A DNA stretch of 20,000 nt. Source: an uncultured virus (IMG/VR IMGVR_UViG_3300031851_000008). Lineage: Duplodnaviria; Heunggongvirae; Uroviricota; Caudoviricetes. Below the pieces are notes generated by a model. That model was not told where the DNA came from and made no database searches. It worked only from the letters and a program-made list of their open reading frames with translations. Both the position numbers and the translations under genes were made by a program. Location of the stretch: IMG/VR virus record IMGVR_UViG_3300031851_000008; one strand, given 5' to 3'. Below are positions 1,094 to 18,294 of this stretch, in pieces (the stretch's first letter is position 1; the number at the start of each line of letters is the position of its first letter).

Positions 1094-1384
1094 ATGAAGT
1101 TAAAGTTAACTAAATCATTTTGTTGGTCTCTTGCAGAATCAACTGAACGAATAGTTACCATGTACTTTATAAATGACATTCCATTTACTTGGGATGAGTT
1201 GACAGAGGATCAAGAAGTAGATTATTCTTGTAAGATTGCTGCAGATACTCATAGAAAGGGGTATAGATATACCCCAGAAGATTTGTTCCGTTCTTCGGGA
1301 TATTTAATTATGGAAGAATGCCATCCTTGCTTTTTTGATTTAGATTTAGAGAATCCTGAAATCTTGGCAGAATTAGAAGATTAA
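1094..1384 (+). CDS. Hypothetical acidic protein of cyanophage type
   Basis: 96-aa ORF, in-strand and tightly packed; MYFINDIPFTWDEL and YL-x-x-EECHP segments resemble a recurrent T4-like cyanophage hypothetical (recalled, not searched). Confidence 0.7.
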   Translation: MKLKLTKSFCWSLAESTERIVTMYFINDIPFTWDELTEDQEVDYSCKIAADTHRKGYRYTPEDLFRSSGYLIMEECHPCFFDLDLENPEILAELED

Positions 1385-1393
1385 CGGATTATT

Positions 1394-2491
1394 ATGTTCG
1401 ATTCACAAATATACAATTATGACTCTGATAAATATCGCTTCCGTGATATTATATTGGAATCTATTCAAAAATATTATCCAGACGTAATTGATCTGGAGCA
1501 CCTTCATGAAGTGGTTCCATATAAGTTAGTTGGAGATCTTGTCAAAAAAATTGGTAAAGATATTGCAGACACTGATTTTTATCAAATATTTGATGGACTA
1601 ATTGCTGAGGAAGTTCTCCCACTATTACCGACAGATGTTCTTGTTCAGAGATTTGGTAATATTAGAATAAATGTTCCAGATCAAGATAGGATTGGCGCTG
1701 TCCTCCCCTTCCACCAAGGTAAGTGGGTTGGTAATGGTTTGGGGTTGAGAACAATATGGTTACCCTTTACTGATGCCTATGATTCTAATTCTCTACAGAT
1801 ACTTGACATAGAGAAGAGTAGATGGATTACTGAAGGTTGTCTCAAAGAAAATTGGGATTATCAAAGATTTCAACATTTTTGTTTAAATCATTGTAAACCT
1901 GTCAATATAACTCAGAATCAGTTTTTGATGTTCACTCAGGAGAATATTCATGGTGCAGTTCCAAATCGAACTGGTAAGACTAGAATAAGTATTGATGTTA
2001 GGGTTCTCCTTAGAGGTGGACAACCTCATAGGAAATGGCCAGGAGCATATTTTAGAATTCTTGGTGATACAGATATTCAGTCAAGGAATGTTTCTATTCT
2101 GGATCACGAGAATGTCGTCATGTATGCAGAATACGAGGGATTTAAAACTAGTCATATAGACTTACACTTTCAGACTTTAACCGTTAAAGATTATTGTAAT
2201 AGGATGGGATATGCATTCCCACATCAAACTGGTGATAATGAAGGAAGAGATCATACATATTTGGAGTACCTAATTAAGCAGGATACTTTAGATCATATTT
2301 TAATGTTTAGTATATTTTCTCTTCCCGATAATATTGATAGAAGAAAATATTTAATGAATCTGTCTTTAGAATATGGTTGCAAGTTACACTTCGCTAACGA
2401 AGAATTTGTCTTAGACAGTGAAGATATGCTACATAAAATAGAATATTTACGCAGTTTTACTGCAGATTGGAGTAGTCCTGTATGCAAATAA
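1394..2491 (+). CDS. Two-domain protein: N-terminal Fe(II)/2OG-dependent enzyme (StrG/PhyH-like) with HxG motif, plus C-terminal domain resembling the 'sporadic carbohydrate cluster' TIGR04323 family
   Basis: H107-Q-G109, TIWLPFT strand, distal H186 in HGAVPNRTGKTRISIDVR (R197-x-S199 2OG-binding). From about residue 240: Q-x-L-x-VKDYC, SIFSLP-x4-RR and LHFANE motifs. Confidence 0.7.
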   Translation: MFDSQIYNYDSDKYRFRDIILESIQKYYPDVIDLEHLHEVVPYKLVGDLVKKIGKDIADTDFYQIFDGLIAEEVLPLLPTDVLVQRFGNIRINVPDQDRIGAVLPFHQGKWVGNGLGLRTIWLPFTDAYDSNSLQILDIEKSRWITEGCLKENWDYQRFQHFCLNHCKPVNITQNQFLMFTQENIHGAVPNRTGKTRISIDVRVLLRGGQPHRKWPGAYFRILGDTDIQSRNVSILDHENVVMYAEYEGFKTSHIDLHFQTLTVKDYCNRMGYAFPHQTGDNEGRDHTYLEYLIKQDTLDHILMFSIFSLPDNIDRRKYLMNLSLEYGCKLHFANEEFVLDSEDMLHKIEYLRSFTADWSSPVCK

Positions 2492-2652
2492 AAATTTGGT
2501 ACAGTGAGGAGATGCATCAATGGCGTTGGATTCTCACAAATGACGACGATAACTATCTACAAGAATCTGGTCAACAGAAGTATCTTGCAGAAGCAATGGC
2601 AGATATAACTGCCACGGTTGAGTACGTTTTAGAGTGTAATCAATCTGAATAA
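2482..2652 (+). CDS. Small hypothetical protein (56 aa), missed by ORF track
   Basis: ATG 2482 overlaps the upstream stop; MQIKIWYSEEMHQWRWILTNDDDNYLQESGQQKYLAEAMADITATVEYVLECNQSE*, TAA 2650-2652. Fills the gap exactly; the WY..QWRW..QESG..AM..TVEY pattern recalls a small conserved cyanophage protein. Confidence 0.75.
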   Translation: MQIKIWYSEEMHQWRWILTNDDDNYLQESGQQKYLAEAMADITATVEYVLECNQSE

Positions 2653-2655
2653 ATA
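2648..2655 (+). promoter_or_regulatory. T4-like late promoter AATAAATA
   Basis: ATAAATA at 2649-2655, about 30 nt upstream of the structural gene ATG (2685). Confidence 0.65.
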
Positions 2656-2684
2656 AAACATAGCAATAGTACTTGTGGAATAAA

Positions 2685-5600
2685 ATGGGTCTTAGTCGCT
2701 TAGATAATTTTCTGAAAAATAGTAGAGGAGATATCCTTTACGTTGATCCTTCAAGTATTGACTCGACGGATAGTATTGAAAACCAAGGTAACTCTTTGGT
2801 TAGACCCTTCAAAACTATCCAAAGGGCATTAATTGAAGCAGCAAGATTCTCTTACCAGAAGGGATTTGACAATGATAGGTTCAGTAGAACAACTATCATT
2901 GTATATCCTGGCGAGCACCTGATTGATAATAGACCAGGTTGGATACCCATACATGATAATCCACAAGGCGGAAATAATTATTTGACTCGTAGTGGATCTG
3001 CATCCAATGCGTTATCCGAATTTACTTTGGATACTAATTTTGATATTGATGATCCAGACAACGATCTCTACAAGATGAACTCGGTATACGGGGGTGTGAT
3101 TATTCCCCGTGGTACATCTATCGTTGGATTGGATCTTCGTAAAACTAAAATTAGACCAAAGTTTGTACCAGATCCTTCTGATACTGATATTAGTAGAACT
3201 TGTTTGTTCCGTGTAACGGGTACTTGTTACTTCTATCAGTTTACTTTCTTTGACGCTGACCCAAGTTCTAGAGTATTTAAAGATTACAGCACCTCTATTT
3301 TTGTACCCAATTTCTCTCACCACAAGTTAACTTGTTTTGAGTATGCTGATGGTGTAAACCCTGTCGCTTTTAATGATTCATTCCTTAACTATAACACCAC
3401 AAGGACTGACCTAGATCTTTACTATCAAAGAATTGGTCTAGCATTTGGTGCTTCTAGTGGAAGAGAGATTGGTCCTGACACTCCAGATAGTGGGGTTGAC
3501 ATTCAGACCAAGGTTGATGAATTTAGAATCGTTGGTTCTAAAGGTGAGAATATTGGTATTAGTAGTATTAAGGCGGGTAATGGTGTAACTGCAAACACCA
3601 CAATTACTGTGGATCTTGTAGAAGAACTCGATGGACTGGACGTTGATACTCCTATAAGAATTGAGGGTGTTCCTACTGGTGGATATAATGGTTCATTTGT
3701 AATTAATTCTGTTGAGAGTAAAACTAGAATTAATTACGAGGTCTCTAGTCCTCCAGCAAATCCTCTACCTTCAATTGTTGCTGGATCTGCAACCCTGAAT
3801 ATTGTTGTTGACTCGGTAACTTCTGCTTCTCCATATATCTTTAACTGTTCATTGAGATCAGTATTTGGTATGTGTGGTCTCCATGCTGATGGTAGCAAGG
3901 CGACTGGATTTAAGTCGATGGTTGTAGCTCAATTCACTGGAATTGGTCTACAAAAAGATGATGAGGCATTTGTAAAATATAACGCAATATCTGGTGTATA
4001 TGAAGATTCTACCGCTGTAGAGAACTTACATACAGATACATCTGCTGTTTATAAACCAGATTATGAGAACTTCCACATTAAGGGGTCTAATGATGCCTTC
4101 TTGCAGTTGGTCTCAGTATTTGCTATTGGATATGCTAACCACTTCCTGTCGGATACTGGTGGTGATATGTCTATCACCAACTCTAACTCTAACTTTGGAG
4201 CAAAAGCATTAATTTGTGTCGGATTTAGAAATAATGCCTTCCCTAGAGATGATACGGGATTTATCACTCACATCCTTCCACCACAAGAACTTACTACAGA
4301 TGAAGTAAACCTTGAGTGGGAAGCAATTGACGTTGCAAGAACAGTTTCTGTAGGACAAACCAGCAGATTATATTTGTATAATCAGTTCAATGCTAATGTC
4401 TCACCACAATCTGTAATTCAAGGATATAGAATTGGTGCAAAAAATCAGGATAGATTGAAGGTTATCATTAATATTAATGGTCAACCTGAGGTTAAACAAG
4501 CAGATATTATTATGCCCGAAACACAGGGCACTGGTGTCTTTGAGACAACTGCTACCAAAATACACACTGTTGGTAGAACTGCCATCGGTATTAATAGTAT
4601 TACTTCTAATATATTCACTCTTACACAACCACACTCATTTATCAGTGGGGAATCTCTCAGAATTTTGAGTGATGATGGAGAACTTCCTGATGGTTTAGAC
4701 CATAATAGACTTTATTATGCAATTACCGCTGGTATTAATACTGACCAAGTTAAGTTGGGTCAAACTCTTAATGATACAATCAGTGCTTCTGCTGTAACTG
4801 TAAACAGTAAAGGTGGTATTCTTCAAATTGAATCCAGAGTATCTGATAAGAAGTCTGGAGACATTGCTCACCCAGTACAATATGATGACACTCAACAGCA
4901 ATGGTATGTTCAGGTAAGTGAAGACAGTACAAAAAATAATATTTACAGCACTATCGTTGGATTAGGAACATTATCTCTTGGAGATGCATCTCCAAAGACA
5001 TTCATTTCTAGAACTCCAGATAATAGATCACTTGAAGATAAAATCTACAAAGTTAGATATGTTGTACCTAGAGATTCTTCTGTTCTTGGTAGACCACCAG
5101 AAGATTCTTTCGTACTTCAAGAATCTGGACAAACAGTTGGACTTACTAATAATGAAATCTCCAAGTTTAAGAGTGTAAGTCCTGTTATTCTTTCTAACAG
5201 TTCTGAATTAAGAAACCCTAGAATGCTCGCAAGTGCTGTCTGGGATGCCACTAGTGGTATTGCTACTATACACACAGAAGTACCACACCAGTTATCTACT
5301 GGTTCTCAAGTTCAGATCTTCAATGTTGTATCTACAGCAAACACTACTGGTATTGCAAACACTGGATTTAACGGTGTATTTGCGGTTACTGGAAGACCAG
5401 ATAGAAAAGCGTTTACTGTTGGTCTCAATACTAACCCTGGACAGTTTGATAACAATACTGATTTAAGAACTACGGATCTTCCTAGGTATGAGAGAAAGAA
5501 TCTTAATAACACATTATTTGTATATAAGAAGGAAGAAGTTCAGGAATATATTCCAAATGCGAAAGATGGTGTTTATCACTTAACCTTAATTGATGCATCT

Positions 5601-8510
5601 TCTAAACCTGCTGTCACTCCATTCCAGAATTTAAGATATCAGCAACCACTTAAGAACCTATTCCCACAACTCGATAGAGATAATCCAGTCTCTGACCCAG
5701 AGCAAACGAGAACATTTGCTCTTCCAACTCCTCTTGGACTTACTGAGGTTAATGATCCTCAGAAAAACCTGACTAAAGAGGTAATTAATAAGAATATTAG
5801 AGACATCAAGATTGGATTTGATGTTGCAGATGTTCTATCTCAGAGTGGTATTGCTCACACTATCCAAACTTTAGGTGACCATGGATTCAATGCGGTCACT
5901 AAAGTTGGTGTTACTAGCACTGGTTTAAATTATGGTAATGGTTCTGGAAGTATTCAGACTCTTTATAATGCTAACTTAGTTGGTTTTGGCAACTCTGATA
6001 CAGGTAAGTTTGCTACAGCAAACGTTCAAATTGATGTTGATGGTGCAATTACTGCTGTCAAGATTGTTGACGGTGGATCTGCATATGGTATTGGTAACAC
6101 TCTTGCTGTTACTGGTATTGGTTCTACTGGGGGATTTGTTCAAGGTTATGTTACTGTTGAAGAAATCCATAACAGTGTTGGTGATGCTATCAGACTTGAT
6201 GGTATTAGGGATGATCGTTTTGTAGATTATAATAACATCTATACCATCTCTGGAATTACTTTAGGTGATGATGTTAATGTAAATGTAACTTCTGCATCTG
6301 AGATCCTTGCTAAATTCCCATTCACGGGAGCACAAGCAGTCGCTGGTATCAATACTAATGGATTGAGTAATATATCTGCAGCAATTCTTTCAGATGTTAC
6401 TGCCTATATGACAGGTAAGACTGTAGGTATTACTTCAATTACTTACAATAACCTGACTGGTATTGCTAGTGTTACTTGTGACAACTCTCACGGAATGTTG
6501 GTTGGTAACAACATTAAGTTTGGTGGATTCTCCGAAGATATTCTGAATGGTGACTTCACCGTTGATACTGTCTACACTGTTGATAGTCTGTCAGTTAAAG
6601 TTGGCGTCGGTACTACAGTAGTATCACCAACTGGTGGTGGACTAATTTATCCTAAAGGTATTACATCTCAGGCAGATAGTATTGATTTTAATGATGAAGC
6701 AGTATCTGCTAGATTGGTTCCTCAGTATGCGGGTATTCAAACCAATATTGTTGCCTCTTTAACTGACACTACTCTCAACACTTTGACCGTGCAAAATGCA
6801 AGTCACGGTGGTTGGGATGTTGGTGATTATCTCGTTATGAATAATGAGATCATGCGTATTAGTCAGTCAGTTAGTAGTGAGAATGCTATTGATGTCTTCC
6901 GTGGATTGTTTGGATCACAAAAACAACAGCACCCAATTGGATCTGTAGTTAAGAAAGTTAGTTTTAAACCTGTTGAATTTAGAAGAAACTCTATTCAACG
7001 TGCATCTGGACATACTTTTGAATATCTTGGATTCGGTCCTGGTAACTACTCTACTGCACTCCCAGAGAGACAGGATAGACAGTTTAAGCAGGTTGAGAGA
7101 TTGTTATCTCAGTCAGTATCTATTGACGGTGGTACTCCATTCTATAATGGACTTGATGATAGAGGTAATTCTTATACTGTTAACAAATTCACTAGTGGTA
7201 CAACTGGTAAAGACTTAGTTACTAATGCACCAGTTCCTACTGTAAGAGGTGAAGACATCACTAGTGATAGTGGTGAGATTGGATTTGATGTAACTTCTAG
7301 TGAACAACTTACAATTAATAGGGGATTGGTTGTTGATGGTGGTAAGGACAATGTTATCATCTCTGAGTTCAATGGACCTGCGGTATTCAATAAGAAAATT
7401 ACTGCAAATGCTCCGATTGAAGGTAATAGTGTTCTGATCCAGGGTGATCAAACTATTGCTAGAGAGTACACTGTTGGTATCTCTACACCACAAGTTGCTG
7501 GAAACGTTGGTAACGTTGTATATGACGCTGAACCAAGATCTGGTGGTGAAATTGGGTGGGTTTATACTAACGATAATAACTGGAAGAAGTTTGCTCCTAT
7601 CCAAGCAAATCCAGACAACTATTACGTTGGTCTTTGGAGTGGTTCATTCAAGGGTGATGGTAGTCAGTTAACAAACGTATCTGATGTTTGGGTATTTGAC
7701 GGTGTTGGTGTCTCGACTACCGCACAAGTTGGTATTGAAACTAGTCAAGCAAAAGCAGGATATTCTCTGTATGCTGCTGGTCCTGTTCTCTTTGAGAATA
7801 ACGTTGAATTTAGAATGGGTTCCTTAGTTTGGAACGTTACTGATGGGTGGATTGTTGAGACTGGTATTACTACTTTTAATCAGCAAGTCAACTTTAACAC
7901 TACAAACACTATTGGTATTGCAACGTTTGTTAATGATGTTATTGTCACAACAGATAAAAACACCACAGGTGATACTCAAGGTAATTATGTAAGATTTACT
8001 CAAACTGATCAGGCACTCAATAGTTCTTACTTCTATGGTGGAATTAAGTTTGAAGGTAGAGACATCAGTAATGATGGTGAGCGCGGATTTGTTAAGGGTG
8101 TATCTGAAGGTACTTCTGGTCAATTTGGATTAAGTTTTGGTACTCAAGACTCTGGTCCATCTAATCCTTTAGAAAGACTGAGAATTAATAAAGATGGAAA
8201 TGCTACATTCTCTGGAACTGTTACTGCAAACTCTGACGAGAGACTTAAAGAAAATGTTGTTGGTATCACTAACGCACTTGATAAAGTTCTCGATCTGCGA
8301 GGTGTATTCTTTAATAGAATAGGTGATCCAGAACGTCAGATTGGTGTAATTGCACAAGAAGTTGAGAAGGTTATTCCTGAATTAGTTCTTGAGGCGAGTG
8401 ATGGAGTTAAATCTGTTGCATACCAGAATATGGTTGCGGTTCTGATTGAGGCAATCAAGGAGCAGCAAGAACAGATCAACGAGTTGAAGGACAGGTTGGA
8501 CAATCTCTAA
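2685..8510 (+). CDS. Large virion structural / tail-fibre-like protein with C-terminal peptidase S74 intramolecular chaperone domain
   Basis: Likely start ATG 2685 (MGLSRLDNFLK; track uses TTG 2673). N-terminal LYV...G-x-S-x-x-RPFKTIQRAL (DUF1565-like beta-helix cap); repeated T-x-x-x-H-x-[LF]-x-x-G beta modules; ends with SDERLKEN...IGVIAQEVEKVIPELV...SVAYQNMVAVLIEAIKEQ plus coiled coil (S74 autocleavage chaperone); late promoter upstream. Confidence 0.88.
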   Translation: MGLSRLDNFLKNSRGDILYVDPSSIDSTDSIENQGNSLVRPFKTIQRALIEAARFSYQKGFDNDRFSRTTIIVYPGEHLIDNRPGWIPIHDNPQGGNNYLTRSGSASNALSEFTLDTNFDIDDPDNDLYKMNSVYGGVIIPRGTSIVGLDLRKTKIRPKFVPDPSDTDISRTCLFRVTGTCYFYQFTFFDADPSSRVFKDYSTSIFVPNFSHHKLTCFEYADGVNPVAFNDSFLNYNTTRTDLDLYYQRIGLAFGASSGREIGPDTPDSGVDIQTKVDEFRIVGSKGENIGISSIKAGNGVTANTTITVDLVEELDGLDVDTPIRIEGVPTGGYNGSFVINSVESKTRINYEVSSPPANPLPSIVAGSATLNIVVDSVTSASPYIFNCSLRSVFGMCGLHADGSKATGFKSMVVAQFTGIGLQKDDEAFVKYNAISGVYEDSTAVENLHTDTSAVYKPDYENFHIKGSNDAFLQLVSVFAIGYANHFLSDTGGDMSITNSNSNFGAKALICVGFRNNAFPRDDTGFITHILPPQELTTDEVNLEWEAIDVARTVSVGQTSRLYLYNQFNANVSPQSVIQGYRIGAKNQDRLKVIININGQPEVKQADIIMPETQGTGVFETTATKIHTVGRTAIGINSITSNIFTLTQPHSFISGESLRILSDDGELPDGLDHNRLYYAITAGINTDQVKLGQTLNDTISASAVTVNSKGGILQIESRVSDKKSGDIAHPVQYDDTQQQWYVQVSEDSTKNNIYSTIVGLGTLSLGDASPKTFISRTPDNRSLEDKIYKVRYVVPRDSSVLGRPPEDSFVLQESGQTVGLTNNEISKFKSVSPVILSNSSELRNPRMLASAVWDATSGIATIHTEVPHQLSTGSQVQIFNVVSTANTTGIANTGFNGVFAVTGRPDRKAFTVGLNTNPGQFDNNTDLRTTDLPRYERKNLNNTLFVYKKEEVQEYIPNAKDGVYHLTLIDASSKPAVTPFQNLRYQQPLKNLFPQLDRDNPVSDPEQTRTFALPTPLGLTEVNDPQKNLTKEVINKNIRDIKIGFDVADVLSQSGIAHTIQTLGDHGFNAVTKVGVTSTGLNYGNGSGSIQTLYNANLVGFGNSDTGKFATANVQIDVDGAITAVKIVDGGSAYGIGNTLAVTGIGSTGGFVQGYVTVEEIHNSVGDAIRLDGIRDDRFVDYNNIYTISGITLGDDVNVNVTSASEILAKFPFTGAQAVAGINTNGLSNISAAILSDVTAYMTGKTVGITSITYNNLTGIASVTCDNSHGMLVGNNIKFGGFSEDILNGDFTVDTVYTVDSLSVKVGVGTTVVSPTGGGLIYPKGITSQADSIDFNDEAVSARLVPQYAGIQTNIVASLTDTTLNTLTVQNASHGGWDVGDYLVMNNEIMRISQSVSSENAIDVFRGLFGSQKQQHPIGSVVKKVSFKPVEFRRNSIQRASGHTFEYLGFGPGNYSTALPERQDRQFKQVERLLSQSVSIDGGTPFYNGLDDRGNSYTVNKFTSGTTGKDLVTNAPVPTVRGEDITSDSGEIGFDVTSSEQLTINRGLVVDGGKDNVIISEFNGPAVFNKKITANAPIEGNSVLIQGDQTIAREYTVGISTPQVAGNVGNVVYDAEPRSGGEIGWVYTNDNNWKKFAPIQANPDNYYVGLWSGSFKGDGSQLTNVSDVWVFDGVGVSTTAQVGIETSQAKAGYSLYAAGPVLFENNVEFRMGSLVWNVTDGWIVETGITTFNQQVNFNTTNTIGIATFVNDVIVTTDKNTTGDTQGNYVRFTQTDQALNSSYFYGGIKFEGRDISNDGERGFVKGVSEGTSGQFGLSFGTQDSGPSNPLERLRINKDGNATFSGTVTANSDERLKENVVGITNALDKVLDLRGVFFNRIGDPERQIGVIAQEVEKVIPELVLEASDGVKSVAYQNMVAVLIEAIKEQQEQINELKDRLDNL

Positions 8511-8579: not shown

Positions 8580-10361
8580 GTGTCCCTCGTCAACATCTAC
8601 TTCGACACTGCCAAAGGTGCCACAGTTCCATCTTTTAATGTTGGAGAGACCCACTTTGCTTGGGAGCATCGGCATCGTGGAAGTGATTATGGTAAGGCAA
8701 AGCAGATTGCTGCCCAATTTGATTCCAAGTATATTCGCTGCCGTTGGTGGGAGAATGTTTCTACTCGTAATGACAGGGATGATCATCACGACGACATTAT
8801 TCATGATTGGTTGATTAAACAACCTGGTATCAAGAAGATTGGTAGAGAGACTTTTGAGTATGATCAGTCTCGATACAACTTGGATATTATCGGTGAGATG
8901 ATCCATGAACAATTCTTCGCAGGTAAGGAGAAGGTGTATGAGGAATTCAAACCGCGTCCATATCAGCAGAAGTTCCTTAGTAAGATTGCATGGTGTACTA
9001 GTAAAGAGTTCCTGCTGTTTGCTAAGTGCCGTGCAGGCAAGTCTGCAATGGTCCTGAAGCACATTGTTGATACTGACTATAAAGTATCCCTGGTTTGCTC
9101 TCGCCAGAAGTCTCCTGAGGGGTCCTGGAAAGACGATTCAAACAAATACTTCCCTTCAGTCAAGTACGTCTCTCTCAAAAAACCTGGTTGGGAGACACAT
9201 CTTGAATACTGGCGTCAACGTGATGTGAACGTTGTTCTCTGGGGTACGGTTCAGACTTGCTTGAAGCGTCTGGACAAGATCAAGAACGTTGACTTCGTTG
9301 CCTTTGACGAGGCACATATTGGAGGTACTGCTGATCAGTTTGTCAAACTGCGCGAAGAACTTGATACTCGGATCTGCTATATCTCTGGAACTGCCCACAA
9401 ACTTTGTTGGATGTTCCCCGATGATAATCAGAAGTTTGTCTATACCTATTTTGATGAGCAACTGGATGTCCAGAATGGGGTGTTCCAACGTCCTAAGATG
9501 AATGTTGCCTTTGCTAAGTATCAAACTTCTGCATATCAAGAGATCTTTGGTAACGATCCTGATGCGATGAAGAACATCTTCACCATGAAAGGAAATGAGT
9601 TCCTACATGAAGATCTGGTCAGAGAGTTTGCTCATAATTACTTTGGACCGCAACGTAATATCCGTATCGGTGATCGTTTGTTGAAGGGTACATATCACAT
9701 GATGGCACTGCCCAGCGTCAAGGCATGTTATGCATTCCAAAAGTTGGTTGAGTGTTACTATCCTGCATTGGTAGTTACCTCTGATGCTAAGAAAGATCAG
9801 GATGATATCAATCTATTCTTGGAGGAGCATTCCAAGGCACTCATCATCACTCAGTCTGCAAATGTTCTGGGTGTGACTGCTAAGAAGATTGATACGGTTA
9901 TCAATTGCCGTGGTGGAGAATCGATTGAGTTCTGGACACAGTTTGCATTCCGTGGTGGATCTGGTGAACATGATTGGTGGGTGATTGATTTTGATGCTCA
10001 GAGGTGCCTACGTGCTCTTCATACAGCGTTCCAACTTGCATGTGATAGCAATCCTTCACTCTCCCAATTCAGCGTTGTAGACTTCACCAACATCCATGAA
10101 TGGAACGATGGGTTCCAGGAACTGAGTAAGGAGGCATTTGAAGATGCTTTAGCAGCAGATGTTGAGAGCAGCATCTCTACTGTGACCAGCATTGTTGAGT
10201 CTCTTGATCTCAGTGGTCTGAGTGACTTCAACTTCAACCTGAAGTCTGCTCTTACGACAGTCTTGAAGGAGACGCAGTTAAATGACAATGGTGCTAACAA
10301 TCAAAGTTGTGTCGTGATGGAGACCGATCGCGTAAAAAAGTCGATGACCTTGACACGCTGA
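8580..10361 (+). CDS. SF2 DExH helicase/ATPase of restriction-enzyme type, with an N-terminal GIY-YIG/T5orf172-like domain (tentative); 0-frame product of a probable -1 frameshift gene
   Basis: Q-motif FKPRPYQ, Walker A AKCRAGKS, Walker B FDEAH, motif III SGT, motif VI variant QFAFRGG. N-terminal ~120 aa has IY...VGET...R...HD-x-x-x-H-x-x-L...E-x-F, resembling the nuclease domains of such R proteins. Confidence 0.8.
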   Translation: MSLVNIYFDTAKGATVPSFNVGETHFAWEHRHRGSDYGKAKQIAAQFDSKYIRCRWWENVSTRNDRDDHHDDIIHDWLIKQPGIKKIGRETFEYDQSRYNLDIIGEMIHEQFFAGKEKVYEEFKPRPYQQKFLSKIAWCTSKEFLLFAKCRAGKSAMVLKHIVDTDYKVSLVCSRQKSPEGSWKDDSNKYFPSVKYVSLKKPGWETHLEYWRQRDVNVVLWGTVQTCLKRLDKIKNVDFVAFDEAHIGGTADQFVKLREELDTRICYISGTAHKLCWMFPDDNQKFVYTYFDEQLDVQNGVFQRPKMNVAFAKYQTSAYQEIFGNDPDAMKNIFTMKGNEFLHEDLVREFAHNYFGPQRNIRIGDRLLKGTYHMMALPSVKACYAFQKLVECYYPALVVTSDAKKDQDDINLFLEEHSKALIITQSANVLGVTAKKIDTVINCRGGESIEFWTQFAFRGGSGEHDWWVIDFDAQRCLRALHTAFQLACDSNPSLSQFSVVDFTNIHEWNDGFQELSKEAFEDALAADVESSISTVTSIVESLDLSGLSDFNFNLKSALTTVLKETQLNDNGANNQSCVVMETDRVKKSMTLTR

Positions 10362-10379
10362 AGAAGCAGACTGTCAAGG
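10319..10379 (+). other. Candidate programmed -1 ribosomal frameshift signal
   Basis: GGAG 10319-10322; A_AAA_AAG at 10334-10340, in phase with the upstream ORF (GTA AAA AAG); 7-nt spacer; stem CCTTGACA (10348-10355)/TGTCAAGG (10372-10379) with inner CTG/CAG; downstream ORF is in the -1 frame. Confidence 0.72.
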
Positions 10380-11713
10380 CACTTTTAGAATCTATCCCTC
10401 TGACCATGTTTTATATCATCCGTAGTGGTCGGAATGTATACTCCATCAACGATGTGATTGGTTCTGATGTTTATTCTTCTGTAAGTGGTGATAAAGAAGG
10501 AATCCTCTCTGAGGTTATCTCTAAAAATCCTCGCAGTGTAGAACTTCTGACCCGTCGCATCGGTTTGGTCTCCAACAGCATTCAGAAGAGTATGAGGCAA
10601 TCGGTCTCTGAGACTATTAACGGTCTATCTGTCTCATCTGCTATTCAGCAATCGATCCCCACTTCTCTCCTTGATACAATGATCAATGACTGTCAAGATA
10701 TGAGCAACACATACATGTTTGGAGATCCTAGTGGATCACACTCTGCTCGCCTTCTAGAACGAGGAATCAATCCCGACAGTCTCACTGTGTGGGAGAGTTG
10801 CGATAGTCACCGTAATCGTGTAGGATATATTGACAAGCAGATCAAAATCGTTGCTACCCACCCAGACATGAAGTTCACTGCCATTCTTGCTAATCCTCCA
10901 TACAACGATCCGACCAAGAAGGCAAGGAACAATAAGTTGTGGACAAAGATTGTAGAGCAACATCTTGAGTTGCTTGCTCCTGGTGGTGATATGTGTGAGG
11001 TTACTCCTGCATCAGTGTTGGGTAACACTGGCAAGGGTAAGAAGTTCATGCAGTTGTTCTCTACTATCTACAATCTTAAACTGATTGATTACACTGCTGA
11101 TGATTACTTTACAGAAGGTGTGGACATTTGTCGTTGGCATCTAGTGAATGAACCATATCAGGGTAAGACTACTGTGATTACTCATGATGGAATCTTTATC
11201 TGGGATCTCCGTGATGGTCTACCTGTTTTTGGTGATGCTGCTCTTAAGTATTCTATTTTAGAGAAGATTGCTAACTCCAACCATCCTCGTATTCCTTTAA
11301 AGATGGGTCAGGTAATTGCTAATGATGATTACACTCCTGATGGTAAGTATGAGATTTATAAATCTGCAGATAAGATTGGTAGAACTGATGTTCTTCCCAA
11401 TACTACTGATGTACTAAAATTTATTGTACCATTCTCATCAACATATAAGAAGAGGTTTATCTCTAATGGATATGTGGGTATGCTTAACGCTTGGTGTCCT
11501 ATTACTTCGGAAGAGGAAGGGACGCGCCTTAGCAAAATCTTTGATAATTCGATTATCAAGTTTTTTGTGGACAATTATAAAAAGACTGCAGGATTTACTC
11601 CTGCTATTAAGAATGCGGAAGTACCTGACATCACAGTCTACAAGGATCTACCTCAGCAATTTGGTTTTACATCCGAAGAACTGAATTACTTGGAGAGATC
11701 TAATGTCATCTAA
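10340..11713 (+). CDS. Eco57I-like N6-adenine methyltransferase catalytic/target-recognition region; probably the C-terminal part of a ~1044-aa frameshift fusion with 8580-10340
   Basis: KFTAILANPPY (motif IV, 10892-10903), LW-x-x-IV, LL-x-x-GG-x-x-x-x-VTP, F-x-x-x-V motif VIII-like, then a TRD-like tail. Motif I is degenerate (FGDPSGS). Track start TTG 10307 and first ATG 10406 lack an evident SD. Confidence 0.75.
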   Translation, partial: VDDLDTLKKQTVKALLESIPLTMFYIIRSGRNVYSINDVIGSDVYSSVSGDKEGILSEVISKNPRSVELLTRRIGLVSNSIQKSMRQSVSETINGLSVSSAIQQSIPTSLLDTMINDCQDMSNTYMFGDPSGSHSARLLERGINPDSLTVWESCDSHRNRVGYIDKQIKIVATHPDMKFTAILANPPYNDPTKKARNNKLWTKIVEQHLELLAPGGDMCEVTPASVLGNTGKGKKFMQLFSTIYNLKLIDYTADDYFTEGVDICRWHLVNEPYQGKTTVITHDGIFIWDLRDGLPVFGDAALKYSILEKIANSNHPRIPLKMGQVIANDDYTPDGKYEIYKSADKIGRTDVLPNTTDVLKFIVPFSSTYKKRFISNGYVGMLNAWCPITSEEEGTRLSKIFDNSIIKFFVDNYKKTAGFTPAIKNAEVPDITVYKDLPQQFGFTSEELNYLERSNVI

Positions 11714-12119
11714 GAACCGTCACAATCAGCAGCATGGGTCCACCATTGAACGCTCTGATGAGAGGATTAAGCAAACACAGGAGGTCTTCACTCCCATTGC
11801 TCTAATTGAACAGATGATTCATGAGATACCTGCATCACAACTGAAGGATCCTGACTCTAAGTTCATGGATAATTGTGCTGGCAGTGGTAACTTCATTGTT
11901 TGTTTATGTGAGGCACTGCAGGAATATCACAGCAAAGATCACATCATCAACAATATGCTGTATGCTGTGGAGTTGATGGAAGACAATCACAAAGAGATGT
12001 GTAGGAGACTTGACATCCCTGCAGATCACCCACATTTTGTCTGTGCAGATGCACTTCAGTATCATTACAGATTTGATGGAACTACAGGACCCGTCACGGT
12101 AGACCAATTCCTGGTATAA
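11703..12119 (+). CDS. Small adenine-methyltransferase-like protein carrying only SAM-binding motifs X, I, II, III
   Basis: QEVFTP (motif X), FMDNCAGSGNF (motif I), LYAVEL (motif II), CADAL (motif III); ends with no NPPY/DPPY. GGAG SD at 11692-11695; overlaps upstream gene by 11 nt. Confidence 0.8.
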   Translation: MSSKNRHNQQHGSTIERSDERIKQTQEVFTPIALIEQMIHEIPASQLKDPDSKFMDNCAGSGNFIVCLCEALQEYHSKDHIINNMLYAVELMEDNHKEMCRRLDIPADHPHFVCADALQYHYRFDGTTGPVTVDQFLV

Positions 12120-12120
12120 T
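12112..12120 (+). promoter_or_regulatory. Extended -10 promoter candidate TGGTATAAT
   Basis: TG-n-TATAAT 12 nt upstream of ATG 12133; no recognisable -35. Confidence 0.45.
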
Positions 12121-12132
12121 ATTCGTATTCAC

Positions 12133-13380
12133 ATGAGTTCAATGCAACTTCGTCCCCACCAGGCAGAAGCACTTGATGTTATGGATCAGAAGTCCAAAGG
12201 CATCGTGGTGGTTCCGACTGGTGGAGGTAAGACCTTTATCGCAATTGCCGATGCAATGCGTGAGATGGATAAGATGGAGGGATGCAAGACCATTGTTGTG
12301 GTTGCTCCTCGCCTCCTGCTTGCTCGTCAACTATCTGATGAGTTTACTCAGCATATTAAGAATGCTGCTGTCCTTCATGTTCACTCTGGTGGTAATGATC
12401 TTCCATACAATTGCACCACCGATCCCAGCATGATTTACAAGTGGGATTATCATACTACTTGTCATAAGCTAATTTTTACTACATATCATTCGCTTCATCG
12501 CATACAAGAATCTAAAATAGTTGTAGATTGCATTTATTTTGATGAGGCGCATAATTCGGTCAAAAAGAATTTCTTTGGTGCTGCCAGGTATTTCACTTCT
12601 GCTGCTCGTCGCTGCTACTTCTTTACTGCTACTCCTAAGTATTCTGCCACTCTTAAAAAACATGGTATGAATGACAGCGTGTATGGTGGCATTATATACA
12701 ATGTTCCAGCACCACGATTGATTAAGAACGGGTCTATTCTCCCCCCTAAGATCAACGCTATCCCTATCGCTGCTATTCGTGAGAAGAGTGTTGAGGAAGC
12801 AGCTCAACGTGACTGCATGACTCTTTTGAGGACTCTTCGTAATGAAGATCATATGCAGAAGGTTCTAATCGCTGCTCCTAACACTACTGTGTTAGGTAAC
12901 ATGATCATCAAAACTACCTTCCTTCAAGAGGTAAGGCAGATGGGGTATGATATATTGTGGATAACTAGTAGGCAGGGTGCATTTCACAACTATAACAAAA
13001 TTAGTCGTGAGAAGTTCTTCTCTCTTGTTCGTGAGTATGGTGATCAACCTGGTAAGAAGTTTATTGTTATTCATTACTCTATCTTGAGCGAAGGTATCTC
13101 TGTTCCTGGTCTCACATCATTAGTTCTGATGCGTCAGATGAATGTTATTGAGATGTGTCAGTCTGTCGGTCGCGTTCTTCGCTTACATCTTGATGATGTT
13201 AAGAGAATACAGCAAGGACAACTTACCCCAGGTAAACTGGAAGACTACAAAAAGTCCTTTGGTCTTGTTCATGTACCTGTTTACAGCAATGTGGGTATTT
13301 CTACAGTCAAGCGTCTGCAGGATGTAGTAAACACAGTGTTTGTAGAAGGTCAACCCGCTATCTCAACTATTAAACGATGA
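12133..13380 (+). CDS. SF2 DEAH-box helicase (ResIII-like), stand-alone
   Basis: LRPHQ, VPTGGGKT, VVAP, FTTYHS, FDEAH, TAT, ILSEGISVPGL, QSVGRVLR: full set of motifs Q and I-VI. Confidence 0.9.
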   Translation: MSSMQLRPHQAEALDVMDQKSKGIVVVPTGGGKTFIAIADAMREMDKMEGCKTIVVVAPRLLLARQLSDEFTQHIKNAAVLHVHSGGNDLPYNCTTDPSMIYKWDYHTTCHKLIFTTYHSLHRIQESKIVVDCIYFDEAHNSVKKNFFGAARYFTSAARRCYFFTATPKYSATLKKHGMNDSVYGGIIYNVPAPRLIKNGSILPPKINAIPIAAIREKSVEEAAQRDCMTLLRTLRNEDHMQKVLIAAPNTTVLGNMIIKTTFLQEVRQMGYDILWITSRQGAFHNYNKISREKFFSLVREYGDQPGKKFIVIHYSILSEGISVPGLTSLVLMRQMNVIEMCQSVGRVLRLHLDDVKRIQQGQLTPGKLEDYKKSFGLVHVPVYSNVGISTVKRLQDVVNTVFVEGQPAISTIKR

Positions 13381-13811
13381 CATACACAGTAGAACGATCC
13401 GCATATTCCTTTGTGAAGGGAATCCGATGGGATCATGTTGATAGACAAAAGGAAATAGAAGAAGCGGCAGGAACTTATGAAGATAGGGGAGACACAAGTT
13501 TACTTGTAAATTGTGGGTACTCTGAACCAGGTCTTCTACAAAACATTCTCATTCAAATGAAGAGAATTGGTTATGGCATGTTCCACATGTATTACAGTAG
13601 AGTAAATGATGGAGAGACTGGTGGATGGCATGAAGATGAGATGGATGTCTTGATTGTTGCATCAATGGGTAGAGTTAAGTATTTGTTTGATATTGATGGT
13701 ACAATAGAAGAGGTTATTCTTTTACCAGGGGATGCCCTTTATATTGATAAAGGAACTCCTCATAGTGCGGTTCATCTTGAACCTAGAATCACTTGTAGTT
13801 TTTGTGAATAG
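13377..13811 (+). CDS. Cupin/JmjC-like 2OG-Fe(II) oxygenase
   Basis: WHED-x-x-DV-x-I...G-x-x-x-Y...LLPGDALYI-x-x-G-x-x-H...R-x-x-x-SF; ATGA overlap with upstream gene. Confidence 0.75.
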   Translation: MTYTVERSAYSFVKGIRWDHVDRQKEIEEAAGTYEDRGDTSLLVNCGYSEPGLLQNILIQMKRIGYGMFHMYYSRVNDGETGGWHEDEMDVLIVASMGRVKYLFDIDGTIEEVILLPGDALYIDKGTPHSAVHLEPRITCSFCE

Positions 13812-14222: not shown

Positions 14223-14440
14223 TGAATGCCGATCCACATCCTGATACTTTGGTAAGTATCACTTGTGATAAGGAAGGTCTAAAGACTATGATTCAGGCAG
14301 CGATTGCCGCAATCAGAAGCACTGATCAGTGGAATTATGGCGATGAGTATGACATTGATGTCACACCATATCATGATATGAGAGACTCTCTAATTGAGAA
14401 GTATAAATCAGTATACGGAGATGAAGAATTTCTTGTGTAA
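14219..14440 (+). CDS. Small acidic hypothetical protein (73 aa)
   Basis: ATGA overlap upstream, GGAGG SD about 9 nt before the start, TAATG overlap downstream. Confidence 0.7.
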   Translation: MMNADPHPDTLVSITCDKEGLKTMIQAAIAAIRSTDQWNYGDEYDIDVTPYHDMRDSLIEKYKSVYGDEEFLV

Positions 14441-14940
14441 TGGTAGAAGAGTTTTTTACAACTGATGATCTTGTTGAATATATGACCTTACTTTTAAAGG
14501 TCTCTTTAGTAAGACCAGAAATATGTAAGGACTACAAAAACAGTTCTTTAAGTGAATCATGTTTTGCCACATTAAATCTTCTTGATTTTTATCGCAGTGA
14601 TAAGTTTTATAACTATATTGGCAAACTTAAAGAAAATGTTGAATTGTCTGTTGAATGTAAGTTGGAATATTATTACTTACATATGGTAGACTATTCTAAT
14701 GGTGGGATTATGACTCCACATAAACATGATCATAACGAAGATTTTAGTTTTATTCTTTATTTGAATGACTGTAATGATGGACACACTATCTTAAAGTTAT
14801 CTGAACCTTGTAGGGTAAAACCAGACAAAGGTAAAGTGTTATTATTTTCTTCTGATATTATTCATGAATCAGAATATTCGCGATCAAAAAAAGTTTTGGT
14901 TGGTGGGTTAAAACGCATAAAGGAGCAGCATGGACAGTAA
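14440..14940 (+). CDS. 2OG-Fe(II) oxygenase-like protein (HxH motif)
   Basis: PHKHDHNEDFSFILYLN...G-x-T...P-x-KG-x-x-x-x-F-x-S-x-x-x-H: double-stranded beta-helix pattern. Confidence 0.75.
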   Translation: MVEEFFTTDDLVEYMTLLLKVSLVRPEICKDYKNSSLSESCFATLNLLDFYRSDKFYNYIGKLKENVELSVECKLEYYYLHMVDYSNGGIMTPHKHDHNEDFSFILYLNDCNDGHTILKLSEPCRVKPDKGKVLLFSSDIIHESEYSRSKKVLVGGLKRIKEQHGQ

Positions 14941-15115
14941 ACATCAAAAACGTAAGGATGCCTTTTTTATTTTTTATGAGAGTGTATTGAAACCAGACCA
15001 TGAACTACGCCAAAATGCACATGATCAGCATTGTTATCATGAATTGTTAGAATGGAGATCCGAAATTATCGAATACCTTGATCATCGTCGTAATGAAGAA
15101 TTTTATTCCAAATAA
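14930..15115 (+). CDS. Small conserved cyanophage-type hypothetical protein (61 aa)
   Basis: AAGGAG SD upstream of ATG 14930; FYESVLKPDHELRQ-x-AH...HEL-x-EWR pattern recalled from cyanophages. Confidence 0.75.
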   Translation: MDSKHQKRKDAFFIFYESVLKPDHELRQNAHDQHCYHELLEWRSEIIEYLDHRRNEEFYSK

Positions 15116-15692
15116 ACACGCTCATCCTGAAGAGGGATACGTTCCCTATGATACCAAACACTTCATCAAGGATTGGGTCATACCATTTTTGCATCTATCC
15201 ATAACCAATTGGGAATTAAAGAGAGAGAAACTGTTAGATGTTTTTGAACAACACTGTGAGGATAGGATAGAAAATATTGGTGAACAATGGACTGATTACC
15301 ATAAAGATTCACGATATCATTATTTGATTGAAAATATCTTATTTGAAGATATAGATCTAGCAATAAAGGAATTGGGGTTTAAAGGTAAAACGCCTAGAGT
15401 TGATACTGCATGGTATCAGATTTATAACGTAGGTCAGCATCATGCGGTTCATAATCATGGATTTGGTGGTATAAGTTTTGTTGTTTTTGTGGATTATGAT
15501 TCAAAAAAACATTTACCTACAACTTTTGTAGCACCATTCACTAGTATGTCGGATGGAAATGTTCTTGAGTATGAACCAGAGGGGGTAAAAGAAGGATCAA
15601 TGATTTTATTTCCTTCTGCTCTTATGCATTATGCTCCAACAAATCAAAACGAAGAGGACAGAATAGTCCTTGCAGGTAATATTAGATTATGA
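15093..15692 (+). CDS. Putative 2OG-Fe(II) oxygenase (TIGR02466/2OG-FeII_Oxy_5-like, HxH)
   Basis: W-x-Q-x-Y...H-x-x-HNHG...S-x-V...EGSMILFPS-x-L-x-H...N...RIVLAGN; start uncertain (TTG 15078 or ATG 15093). Confidence 0.8.
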   Translation: MKNFIPNKHAHPEEGYVPYDTKHFIKDWVIPFLHLSITNWELKREKLLDVFEQHCEDRIENIGEQWTDYHKDSRYHYLIENILFEDIDLAIKELGFKGKTPRVDTAWYQIYNVGQHHAVHNHGFGGISFVVFVDYDSKKHLPTTFVAPFTSMSDGNVLEYEPEGVKEGSMILFPSALMHYAPTNQNEEDRIVLAGNIRL

Positions 15693-16719: not shown

Positions 16720-17196
16720 ATGGAGCATTTAAAAATTCAACCACACCAAACGGTTCTGGTTTTGAATTCAAGTTATGAACCAATTAACTTTACTAATTGG
16801 AAGAGAGCAATAGTTCTTGTTCTAAAAGAGAAAGTTCAAGTTTTATCAGGTAGAGTAGTAAGACTCCTTAACTACATAAAAATTCCTATTAGGAGTTTTA
16901 TGGCAAATCGCCCGACACGTAGTATGATATACAAGAGAGATAGAAATTCTTGTCAGTATTGTGGAGTGACAACCAGACTTACTATAGATCATGTAATTCC
17001 TCGTAGTAAAGGTGGAGAAGATACATGGGATAACCTAGTAGTTGCATGTTCTTCTTGCAATGTCAAGAAGAGTGATAAAATGCTTGAACAAACAAACCTT
17101 AAATTGAGGAAAATGCCCAGAGCACCATACAGCACAGTTGCTATTGATTTAGCAGAATCAAGTGTTGATGAGTGGAGAGAGTATAGTTACGTCTAG
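16720..17196 (+). CDS. HNH endonuclease (McrA-like, zinc-binding)
   Basis: VLVLNSSYEP N-terminus; RD-x-x-x-CQYC, TIDHVIPRSKGG-x-x-TWDNLV-x-AC-x-x-CN-x-x-K. Confidence 0.92.
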   Translation: MEHLKIQPHQTVLVLNSSYEPINFTNWKRAIVLVLKEKVQVLSGRVVRLLNYIKIPIRSFMANRPTRSMIYKRDRNSCQYCGVTTRLTIDHVIPRSKGGEDTWDNLVVACSSCNVKKSDKMLEQTNLKLRKMPRAPYSTVAIDLAESSVDEWREYSYV

Positions 17197-17759: not shown

Positions 17760-18294
17760 AGTATTTGACGATTATTTGGGTCCAGAAGAACATGATCGTT
17801 TGTGTAGTTACTTTATGGGCAACTATGACAAAGGAGATATCGCTAATTCATGCTGTTGGATATTTAATGGTGGAGTTAGTCACCCAAATGATGGTCACTT
17901 TCAACACATCCATCAGTTGTTTTCGGACCATCAAATCATTAGTCCTGCATGGTCATTGGTAAGACCAATTATTGATAAGGAAGAAGCAATTGCTATTGCT
18001 AGGGTAAAGGCAAACATGCTTGTTAGAACACCTGAAGTAGTAGTCTTTGATAACTGTTTTCATTGTGATTATGACTGCTCAATGTCACATATGAATACTG
18101 CAATCTATTATATCAATACTAATAATGGATTTACTTTGTTTGAAGATGGAACAAAAGTTGAGAGTGTAACTAATCGGTTAGTAAGATTTCCATCAAATTT
18201 GAAGCATACTGGATCTACATGTAGTGATGCTGATCGTAGGATTTTGATCAATTTTAACTACTTTACTGAGAGATGTTTACTACAAAACAATTAG
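17752..18294 (+). CDS. 2OG-Fe(II) oxygenase (prolyl-hydroxylase-like family common in cyanophages)
   Basis: FHCD...TAIYYINTNNG-x-T-x-F...NRLV-x-F...HTG...R-x-x-INFNY; TTG start with AGGAG upstream. Confidence 0.8.
   Translation: MIEVFDDYLGPEEHDRLCSYFMGNYDKGDIANSCCWIFNGGVSHPNDGHFQHIHQLFSDHQIISPAWSLVRPIIDKEEAIAIARVKANMLVRTPEVVVFDNCFHCDYDCSMSHMNTAIYYINTNNGFTLFEDGTKVESVTNRLVRFPSNLKHTGSTCSDADRRILINFNYFTERCLLQNN

Follow-up and report, generated by a model that had tools for sequence, protein, structure and literature searches.

Glycine for carboxylate and a coupled glutamine in a predicted Fe(II)/2-oxoglutarate oxygenase of a marine cyanophage

Does an enzyme of the Fe(II)/2-oxoglutarate (2OG) type that carries glycine where the iron-binding carboxylate is expected have to be a radical halogenase? 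This question is raised by an open reading frame (ORF) on the plus strand, at positions 1394-2491, of a 20,000-nucleotide stretch of uncultured virus DNA (IMGVR_UViG_3300031851_000008; hereafter the window), which belongs to a T4-like marine cyanophage and contains short stretches matching Synechococcus and Prochlorococcus phages. According to the ORF list and its translation, the gene (P0001) encodes a two-domain Fe(II)/2OG enzyme of 365 residues plus a stop codon, in which the proximal iron histidine is followed by glycine at the facial-triad carboxylate place: H107-Q108-G109 (CAC CAA GGT, 1712-1720). A preliminary description of the locus had taken this motif as the mark of a candidate halogenase. 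We find that the H-x-G motif is genuine, that it is conserved and that it apparently derives from H-x-D, but that by itself it is insufficient for such an assignment, given AspH, HygX and an invariant glutamine, Gln182. The reading that we favour, and to which we would give an even chance, is an active, non-halogenating Fe(II)/2OG oxygenase with a predicted His2-Gln metal site and a nucleotide-sugar or glycan intermediate as its substrate.

Conservation of the metal-binding motif

A word-indexed search returned 176 homologues, mostly fused forms of 360-390 residues, and an exhaustive HMMER search added 356 proteins at greater distance, the top 150 of them being used. The query and its 120 best homologues form alignment A1 (121 sequences); of the 269 proteins collected, 244 of at least 200 residues were aligned, and a profile (A2) was built from 115 diverse members. 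Eight residues, namely H107, Q108, G109, H186, R197, S199, D201 and R203, are invariant in all 121 sequences of A1. Over the 244 homologues the column of Gly109 contains glycine in 145 sequences, aspartate in 93, a gap in six and no other residue. The conserved residue is found at H107 in 238 of these sequences, at H186 in 241, at R197 in 240, at S199 in 236 and at D201 in 222; both histidines, Arg197, Ser199, Asp201 and Arg203 are retained in 222-241 of the 244, down to about 20% identity. Conservation of H-Q-G among homologues, a point raised by the preliminary description, is thus borne out by the closest relatives, and the wider family divides between glycine and aspartate.

The same description had cautioned that the glycine codon GGT is one base away from the aspartate codon GAT. 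In the window and 80 further viral loci, three of which are truncated and lack the motif, the 80 motif matches use GGT (44), GGA (28), GGC (4) and GGG (4), and with four glycine codons in use a slip of this kind can be set aside. Because H-Q-G is invariant in the closest relatives and is written with four different glycine codons, chance or sequencing error is excluded as its origin.

Is this glycine really located where the iron-binding carboxylate would be? In the A2 profile the segment 'pfHtDewy' aligns with 'PFHQDGFY' of PtlH, and 'HG' aligns with the histidine of 'HMCHKS' (expectation value (E) 1.5e-7). In the deposited PtlH chain the matched residues have the numbers 140, 142 and 229, and we take them to be His137, Asp139 and His226 in the numbering of the original paper. 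Since the profile aligns the aspartate of the relatives with the H-Q-D motif of PtlH, and their distal histidine with that of PtlH, this alignment places Gly109 exactly at the position of the iron-binding aspartate of its relatives and of PtlH, that is, at the carboxylate position of the facial triad. The distal iron histidine, H186 (CAT, 1949-1951), aligns with the corresponding histidine of PtlH, AndA, PhyH, EasH, SyrB2 and CytC3. The segment R197-I-S199 (1982-1990; R197 at 1982-1984 and S199 at 1988-1990) aligns with 'RMSMDTR' of PtlH and is the expected holder of the 2OG C5 carboxylate, a role of the R-x-S motif that is described for AspH in the available text of PMC6817910. All of these elements, which had been reported previously, are read as such in the sequence and its translation.

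Fold of the oxygenase domain

An AlphaFold2 model calculated from the 121 sequences has a mean pLDDT (predicted local distance difference test) of 94.4 and a pTM (predicted template modelling score) of 0.90, and its residues 1-229 are matched by PhyH-like Fe/2OG enzymes. According to VIA-align, PtlH superimposes on model residues 1-220 with a Z-score of 15.4 and a root mean square deviation of 3.3 over 207 aligned residues, followed by FtmOx1 with a Z-score of 13.7 and many others between 12 and 13. Foldseek gave 268 matches in the PDB at E <= 0.001, again led by PhyH-like enzymes. The top five are entries of the CurA halogenase domain (E 3.5e-8 to 2.1e-7), and these are followed by SptF, ThoJ, PtlH, SnoK, EctD, HygX (4zpi_B, E 6.6e-6) and SyrB2 (E 7.0e-6). 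In the model the N-terminal domain is thus a PhyH-like Fe(II)/2OG fold, and the earlier assignment to this enzyme class agrees with both the PtlH superposition and the best CurA match. The features that define the PhyH-like branch are present as regards the fold, both iron histidines and the arginine with serine for the 2OG C5 carboxylate; the Asp or Glu two residues past the proximal histidine is replaced by Gly109.

A glutamine that accompanies the glycine

If the carboxylate is lost, which residue could take its place? The site that best separates the glycine forms from the aspartate forms is Q182 (CAG, 1937-1939), which is located four residues before the distal histidine and is a candidate for a relocated third ligand or for a hydrogen-bond partner of a halide or oxo group. 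Among the 244 homologues, Gly109 occurs together with Gln182 in 141 sequences and with a gap in four truncated ones, and never with any other residue. Among the 93 aspartate forms, the residues at this position include Ser (24), Pro (21), Asn (12), Ala (11), Gly (7) and Thr (7), whereas just two forms have Gln and one has Glu. The viral loci agree: glutamine is present in 80/80 motif matches from the window and the loci of the first scan, and in 40/40 glycine forms among 46 further loci, the other six being three truncated sequences and three aspartate forms. On a tree calculated without these columns, glutamine moves with glycine in three of three independent pairs on supported branches, a number too small to reach significance (p 0.25).

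Other positions were considered as well. Residue 120 also tracks the glycine, being Thr or Ser in 144 of the 145 glycine forms and Asn in 68 of the 93 aspartate forms. Asp67, which lies in an N-terminal helix, is enriched in the glycine forms of the tree described below (57/65, compared to 12/90 aspartate forms). Asp201, another potential substitute ligand, is common to the aspartate forms (222/244 overall) and to PtlH. Asn114, which is His in most aspartate forms, was rejected as a substitute ligand because its coupling to the glycine in raw counts vanishes when phylogeny is taken into account. From these comparisons the substitute for the lost aspartate may be Gln182 rather than any Asp, Glu or His.

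In other enzymes of this fold the position of Gln182 is occupied by small residues. Profile alignments place a serine there in SyrB2 ('FWSTLMH') and CytC3 ('FWSNTMH'), and the residue is Ala in PtlH, Gly in AndA and EasH, and Pro in PhyH, so that it is small in halogenases and hydroxylases alike. The serine of SyrB2 presumably lines the chloride pocket. A precedent for a long side chain is provided by HygX, which according to the available part of a review has the arrangement H-X-G...E-X3-H, with the iron carboxylate relocated to four residues before the distal histidine (PMC13374393). Because this glutamate sits at the same -x3-His spacing in a PhyH-like fold, a side chain of the length of Glu or Gln could, by analogy, reach the iron from position 182; Gln182 is equated here with the HygX glutamate by motif spacing and the shared fold.

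Origin of the glycine form

For the phylogenetic analysis, 230 sequences with Gly or Asp in the motif, the distal histidine and at least 170 domain residues were thinned at 75% identity to 155 (90 Asp and 65 Gly forms). The tree was calculated with FastTree after removal of the motif columns; it is unrooted, gives local support values and contains several flagged long branches. All outer clades of this tree consist of aspartate forms, and one well-supported clade of 78 sequences unites all 65 glycine forms with 13 aspartate forms. Parsimony requires seven changes between Asp and Gly, and well-supported branches make at least three of these unavoidable. The clade to which the window belongs (27 sequences, support 97) is entirely of the glycine type. 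As the outer clades all carry Asp and aspartate is also present in other PhyH enzymes, we infer that the change went from Asp to Gly and that H-x-G is derived from H-x-D relatives.

The two forms are also found at the same genomic location. Following the same block of genes for SufB, SufC, SufD, SufS, an FeS-assembly protein, a peroxiredoxin and a GNAT protein, locus L111 encodes an H-K-D form with Gln and locus L085 an H-Q-G form with Gln. Likewise, L084 (H-C-D, with Thr at the Gln position) and L112 (H-Q-G) share upstream genes for Hsp20, ClpS and a peroxiredoxin, and in both a cytidylyltransferase-like gene comes next downstream. Such an exchange of Asp and Gly in one slot is the pattern to be expected if one ligand had been swapped neutrally for another while the pathway stayed the same. 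Forms that combine Asp with Gln occur in P0132, P0242, L111 and L116, and would fit a path in which the new residue was gained before the old ligand was lost.

The genes of L111 (6995-8089) and L116 (517-1611) read F-H-K-D-E-W together with F-Q-Q-H-H-I-H-G, are about 61% identical to forms with Gly and Gln, and occupy the same slot as the gene of L085. The latter locus (1099-6496) belongs to a large phage with a full SUF set (SufB, SufC, SufD, SufS and the FeS-assembly protein) and a peroxiredoxin beside the enzyme.

Domain layout and the C-terminal domain

The preliminary description had given the gene as 1394-2110. The ORF in fact extends to 2491; position 2110 lies close to the end of the N-terminal domain, and the C-terminal domain had been overlooked. 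The N-terminal part (residues 1-235, 1394-2098) is the PhyH-like double-stranded beta-helix oxygenase domain, as indicated by TIGR04324, the structural match to PtlH and Foldseek. The C-terminal part (residues 236-365, 2099-2488) is TIGR04323/LIC12192-like and folds like the catalytic domain of serine recombinases according to NCBIfam, the model and Foldseek; both domains are encoded on the plus strand.

TIGR04324, 'sporadic carbohydrate cluster 2OG-Fe(II) oxygenase', matches residues 15-204 with 78.9 bits at a cut-off of 150, and TIGR04323 (LIC12192 family) matches residues 244-352 with 52.8 bits, just under its cut-off of 55. No other NCBIfam model matches the phage protein. Because both scores are below the curated cut-offs, the protein is classed by these models as a relative, and not a member, of either family. 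The TIGR04324 cut-off is passed by stand-alone H-x-D proteins (P0181 with 207.8 bits and P0203 with 242 bits), and that of TIGR04323 by the relatives P0122 (57.5) and P0039 (61.6). At the level of these matches, the phage protein is a fusion of two proteins that are adjacent in some bacterial carbohydrate clusters. A Pfam search of the protein produced just two sub-threshold chance matches, a PHROGs search gave no match, a single-sequence search of the PDB found nothing with E < 1, and a structure search of BFVD found no full-length look-alike (best TMq 0.35). Matches in the ESM Atlas are viral clusters only, either tagged as PhyH or without a name.

When folded alone, the C-terminal 130 residues reach a pLDDT of 87.3. 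Twelve serine recombinases superimpose with Z-scores of 11.7 to 8.4, and the next, unrelated entry follows at 6.4; Foldseek values against serine recombinases extend from E 5.9e-5 (TP901-1 integrase) to 1e-3. Serine recombinases carry a nucleophilic serine and an arginine after the first strand (Y-x-R-V-S). In the phage family Y-A-E-Y-E-G stands after this strand (alignment A3), the Ser/Arg motif of the recombinases is absent, and no DNA-binding domain comes after the C-terminal domain. Sequence and model together suggest a domain that shares the recombinase fold and does a different job, and the recruitment of this fold into sugar-pathway enzymes appears to be undescribed. A search for split, stand-alone versions of the domain found just four short fragments at contig ends.

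Gene neighbourhoods of the relatives and the probable substrate

What might such an enzyme act on? In distant phages, whose proteins are 50-56% identical, the gene is located in a tight operon with one or two nucleoside diphosphate (NDP)-sugar epimerase/dehydratases and a DegT-like fragment. A B12-binding radical-SAM gene overlaps the enzyme gene by 4 bp and is followed by genes for GTP cyclohydrolase I, a QueD-like PTPS, a phosphoribosyltransferase, an HIT protein, a methyltransferase and S-adenosylmethionine synthetase. In a third group of phages a cytidylyltransferase-like gene overlaps the end of the enzyme gene. Among prokaryotes, searched with one genome per species, just two loci were found, both in Roseivirga-like Bacteroidota, where the gene is surrounded by those for GDP-mannose 4,6-dehydratase, an epimerase, two fucosyltransferase-like proteins, a sulfotransferase, glycosyltransferases and an ABC-2 exporter. 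On account of these neighbourhoods a nucleotide-sugar or glycan is the best inference for the substrate. Of the sugar, nucleotide or amino-acid substrates proposed in the preliminary description, it is a sugar-nucleotide that fits.

In loci such as L060 (6190-9113) and L067 (6169-9113), translation of the enzyme is coupled to that of a B12-binding radical-SAM protein of some 595 residues, with NDP-sugar epimerase/dehydratase genes and genes of the 7-deazaguanine type (GTP cyclohydrolase I, QueD-like PTPS and phosphoribosyltransferase) on the flanks; such loci may encode a pathway for a modification that combines a sugar with a deazapurine. Tandem copies of the enzyme with a 4-bp overlap, both with Gly and Gln, are present in 8 of the 46 further loci (L089, L090, L093, L095, L097, L098, L099 and L117); in L093 they lie at 5862-6998 and 6995-8131, and L117 has its second copy broken up into two ORFs.

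Proposed mechanism and alternatives

In the reading that we favour, Gln182 would swing into the space left by the lost aspartate and take the third position on the iron, in a geometry like that of the relocated glutamate of HygX, the donor here being the oxygen of an uncharged amide. The resulting His2-Gln site would bind 2OG in a bidentate manner and leave one position free for O2, and the ferryl species formed could then hydroxylate the sugar substrate, or cyclise it oxidatively, desaturate or epimerise it. The fused resolvase-fold domain may serve as a module for substrate binding or partner docking; in bacteria its counterpart is a separate protein encoded next to the oxygenase. In this cyanophage the product would probably decorate a surface glycan, a virion component or a nucleotide derivative. 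We prefer such a rebuilt oxygenase site because of the HygX precedent, the small residue at the position of Gln182 in true halogenases, the activity of AspH, and the exchange of Asp and Gly forms in one slot.

Several observations weigh against this proposal. The reach of Gln182 to the metal is deduced from motif spacing and sequence alignment. Glutamine is a weak Fe(II) ligand; glutamate, the better one, is used by HygX, and it is found at position 182 in none of the 141 glycine forms, although simple ligation should allow it sometimes. To our knowledge, the sole precedent for a His2-Gln iron site is the one reported for methylphosphonate synthase. The tree-based test of the coupling of Gln to Gly has just three independent pairs (p 0.25), the best Foldseek match is a halogenase domain (CurA Hal), and no sugar genes lie beside the ORF in the window.

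Could the enzyme, then, be a radical Fe(II)/2OG halogenase? Chloride or bromide would bind to the iron, held by the amide NH2 of Gln182, and after the ferryl has taken a hydrogen from a carbon of the sugar or nucleotide-sugar the halogen would rebound to that carbon. The H-Q-G motif agrees with the replacement of the carboxylate by Ala or Gly that marks radical halogenases; it is invariant, derived from H-x-D relatives and written with all four glycine codons. The CurA halogenase domain provides the top five Foldseek matches, and SyrB2 and CytC3 are matched by the sequence profile as well. Glu never accompanies the glycine (0/141); the partner is in every case Gln, a neutral hydrogen-bond donor, which would be easier to explain if an anion sits beside it, and it is this invariance that keeps halogenation under consideration. 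Moreover, near-identical DNA was found, among the matches listed, in 20 sequencing runs from 14 studies; seven of these runs may be the source sample, and all are labelled as marine, seawater or viral metagenomes, where chloride is plentiful. On the other hand, SyrB2 and CytC3 keep a small serine at the place of Gln182, and a long glutamine can fill the halide site as the HygX glutamate does. AspH, with two histidine ligands, does not halogenate according to the available text of PMC6817910, and since this two-His enzyme is a hydroxylase, H-x-G is not enough to make a halogenase. The exchange of Asp and Gly forms in the same genomic slot and the existence of Asp+Gln intermediates (P0132, P0242, L111 and L116) also argue against halogenation, and chlorinated sugars are not known to us as natural components of glycans. 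We regard halogenation as a tentative alternative, less likely than a rebuilt oxygenase site.

An oxygenase that works with its two histidines, as AspH does, with water in the third site, would likewise give a hydroxylated product; Gln182 together with Thr120 would then contact either the substrate or 2OG at its C1 carboxylate, and would stay off the metal. AspH is active with two His and the R-x-S motif, as far as the accessible text describes it (PMC6817910), and the tracking of the glycine by Thr/Ser120 hints at a wider rebuilding of the second sphere instead of a single ligand swap. However, Gln182 sits exactly where HygX has its metal ligand, its absolute coupling to Gly exceeds what a substrate contact would need, and Asp+Gln forms occur in the same slot, so that this arrangement seems doubtful to us, more so than halogenation. 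Loss of a carboxylate ligand is also one route to pseudoenzymes, in which case the domain would be a catalytically dead oxygenase fold retained as a binding protein. Yet a mere scaffold needs none of the histidines, Arg197, Ser199, Asp201 or Arg203 that nearly all of the family retain, and we consider this very improbable.

Surroundings of the gene in the window and distribution

The window and the 80 loci from the first scan were compared as 81 loci; one of them (L002), the record nearest the window, carries an identical gene, has half of the window's sampled words in common and does not count as independent. A tail-fibre gene of about 1,940 codons lies 3' of the ORF in 53 of the 81 loci, and an ORF of 95-96 residues assigned to phrog_4134, without a Pfam match, lies 5' of the enzyme in 56 of 81. 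We regard this adjacency as a gene order common to related phages and not as a sign of a functional link. In the window the tail-fibre protein (1,945 residues, 2673-8510, phrog_529, 1344 bits) is encoded directly downstream, and a tRNA-Leu (anticodon TAA, 978-1064), similar to those of the cyanophages P-RSM1 and metaG-MbCM1, is located just 5' of the gene pair.

A promoter scan found 11 sites compared to 8.0 ± 3.0 in shuffled sequences, which is not above expectation, and none of four terminator-like sites is placed sensibly around the ORF. Contigs from RNA-type libraries match the window without differences at 1852-2039 and 2281-2547 (X15, X16), 1884-2034 and 2079-2229 (X18) and 1259-1422 (X20); as such libraries may contain DNA, these contigs are no proof of transcription, and the parts left uncovered carry no meaning.

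Three more small genes of the cupin/2OG-oxygenase type cluster in the window, at 13377-13811 (JmjC/Cupin_2-like), 14440-14940 (2OG-FeII_Oxy_3) and 15078-15692 (2OG-FeII_Oxy_5). An Eco57I-like methylase (468 residues), an N6-DNA-methylase fragment (138 residues) and a ResIII/DEAD helicase (415 residues) follow one another at 10307-13380 and may form a split or degenerate module resembling a restriction-modification system. An HNH endonuclease is encoded at 16720-17196, and at 18273-19998 a radical-SAM gene overlaps a carbamoyltransferase gene that runs out of the window.

A relative of the enzyme is encoded on 265 viral contigs, and a second query adds 43. The aspartate form P0130 found nothing when used as the query in the viral scan, and a tblastn search of 50,697 GenBank phage records, a set that may lack records close to the window, gave no match.

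Implications

A full-text search of the literature for the sporadic carbohydrate cluster oxygenase family by name found no paper. Those consulted among the papers that join halogenase, cyanophage and 2-oxoglutarate deal just with phage genes resembling flavin-dependent tryptophan halogenases. Within the literature searched, a site of the type H-x-G...Q-x3-H in a 2OG enzyme is undescribed. If Gln182 ligates the iron, the family would show that a 2OG-dependent oxygenase can have a natural site of the His2-Gln type, of which we found no report. If a halide binds instead, the radical Fe(II)/2OG halogenases would gain their first viral member, which would also be their first to act on a sugar or nucleotide-sugar; H-x-G...Q-x3-H would then be a new halogenase signature, present in hundreds of uncultured marine and freshwater phages, and halogenated glycans or nucleotides would be made by phage-infected cyanobacteria. 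In either case the enzymology would be new, and the group of viruses concerned is a very common one. Moreover, the natural versions with Asp, with Asp and Gln, and with Gly and Gln in one slot constitute a series in which the question of hydroxylation versus halogenation could be addressed.

Comparison with known systems

How does this site compare to those already described? The closest solved structure and best profile match (E 1.5e-7) is PtlH, the 1-deoxypentalenic acid 11-beta-hydroxylase (PDB 2RDN-2RDS). The two proteins share H-Q-x, W-x-P and R-x-S-x-D-x-R; PtlH, however, has the canonical H-Q-D triad with Ala at the position of Gln182, acts on a terpenoid and consists of a single domain. 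The proteins described by TIGR04324 and TIGR04323 are neighbours, relatives are located in polysaccharide or nucleotide-sugar clusters, and the phage halves, which match both, are fused; the stand-alone TIGR04324 proteins above the cut-off carry H-x-D, whereas the phage protein carries H-Q-G.

The halogenases SyrB2, CytC3 and CurA Hal belong to the same fold subfamily and also have a small residue in place of the carboxylate, the sequence matches of the A2 profile being weak (SyrB2 E 0.031, CytC3 E 0.056). They differ in the serine that SyrB2 and CytC3 have at the position of Gln182, and in their substrates, which are bound to aminoacyl- or acyl-carrier proteins; no carrier protein is seen at the phage locus. 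A glutamine ligand has a parallel in methylphosphonate synthase, a cupin non-haem iron enzyme in which, reportedly (Born and colleagues, in 2017), Gln replaces Glu as the third ligand, which would show that O2 activation is within the capacity of such a site. This enzyme does not depend on 2OG, and it belongs to a different cupin family with a different substrate.

AspH, in which the metal is held by just two histidines and 2OG by an R-x-S motif, is a hydroxylase and shows no halogenase activity with chloride; its authors conclude that whether such an enzyme hydroxylates or halogenates is set by factors beyond the ligand count (PMC6817910, available text). It belongs to a different fold subfamily, acts on a protein, and the same text describes no coupled glutamine. 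A further comparison is with HygX, the hygromycin B orthoester synthase (PDB 4XCA, 4ZPI), which is PhyH-like, acts on a sugar, and has both an H-x-G triad and a third-ligand position four residues before the distal histidine. HygX has an acidic E-x3-H there, and the available part of its description adds that Lys137 fills the gap left by the relocation; in the phage family every glycine form has Gln and none of 141 has Glu. HygX, which has no resolvase-fold domain, is at 10% identity not a close relative of the phage proteins, and since the two are so distant the metal site was probably rebuilt independently in each of them.

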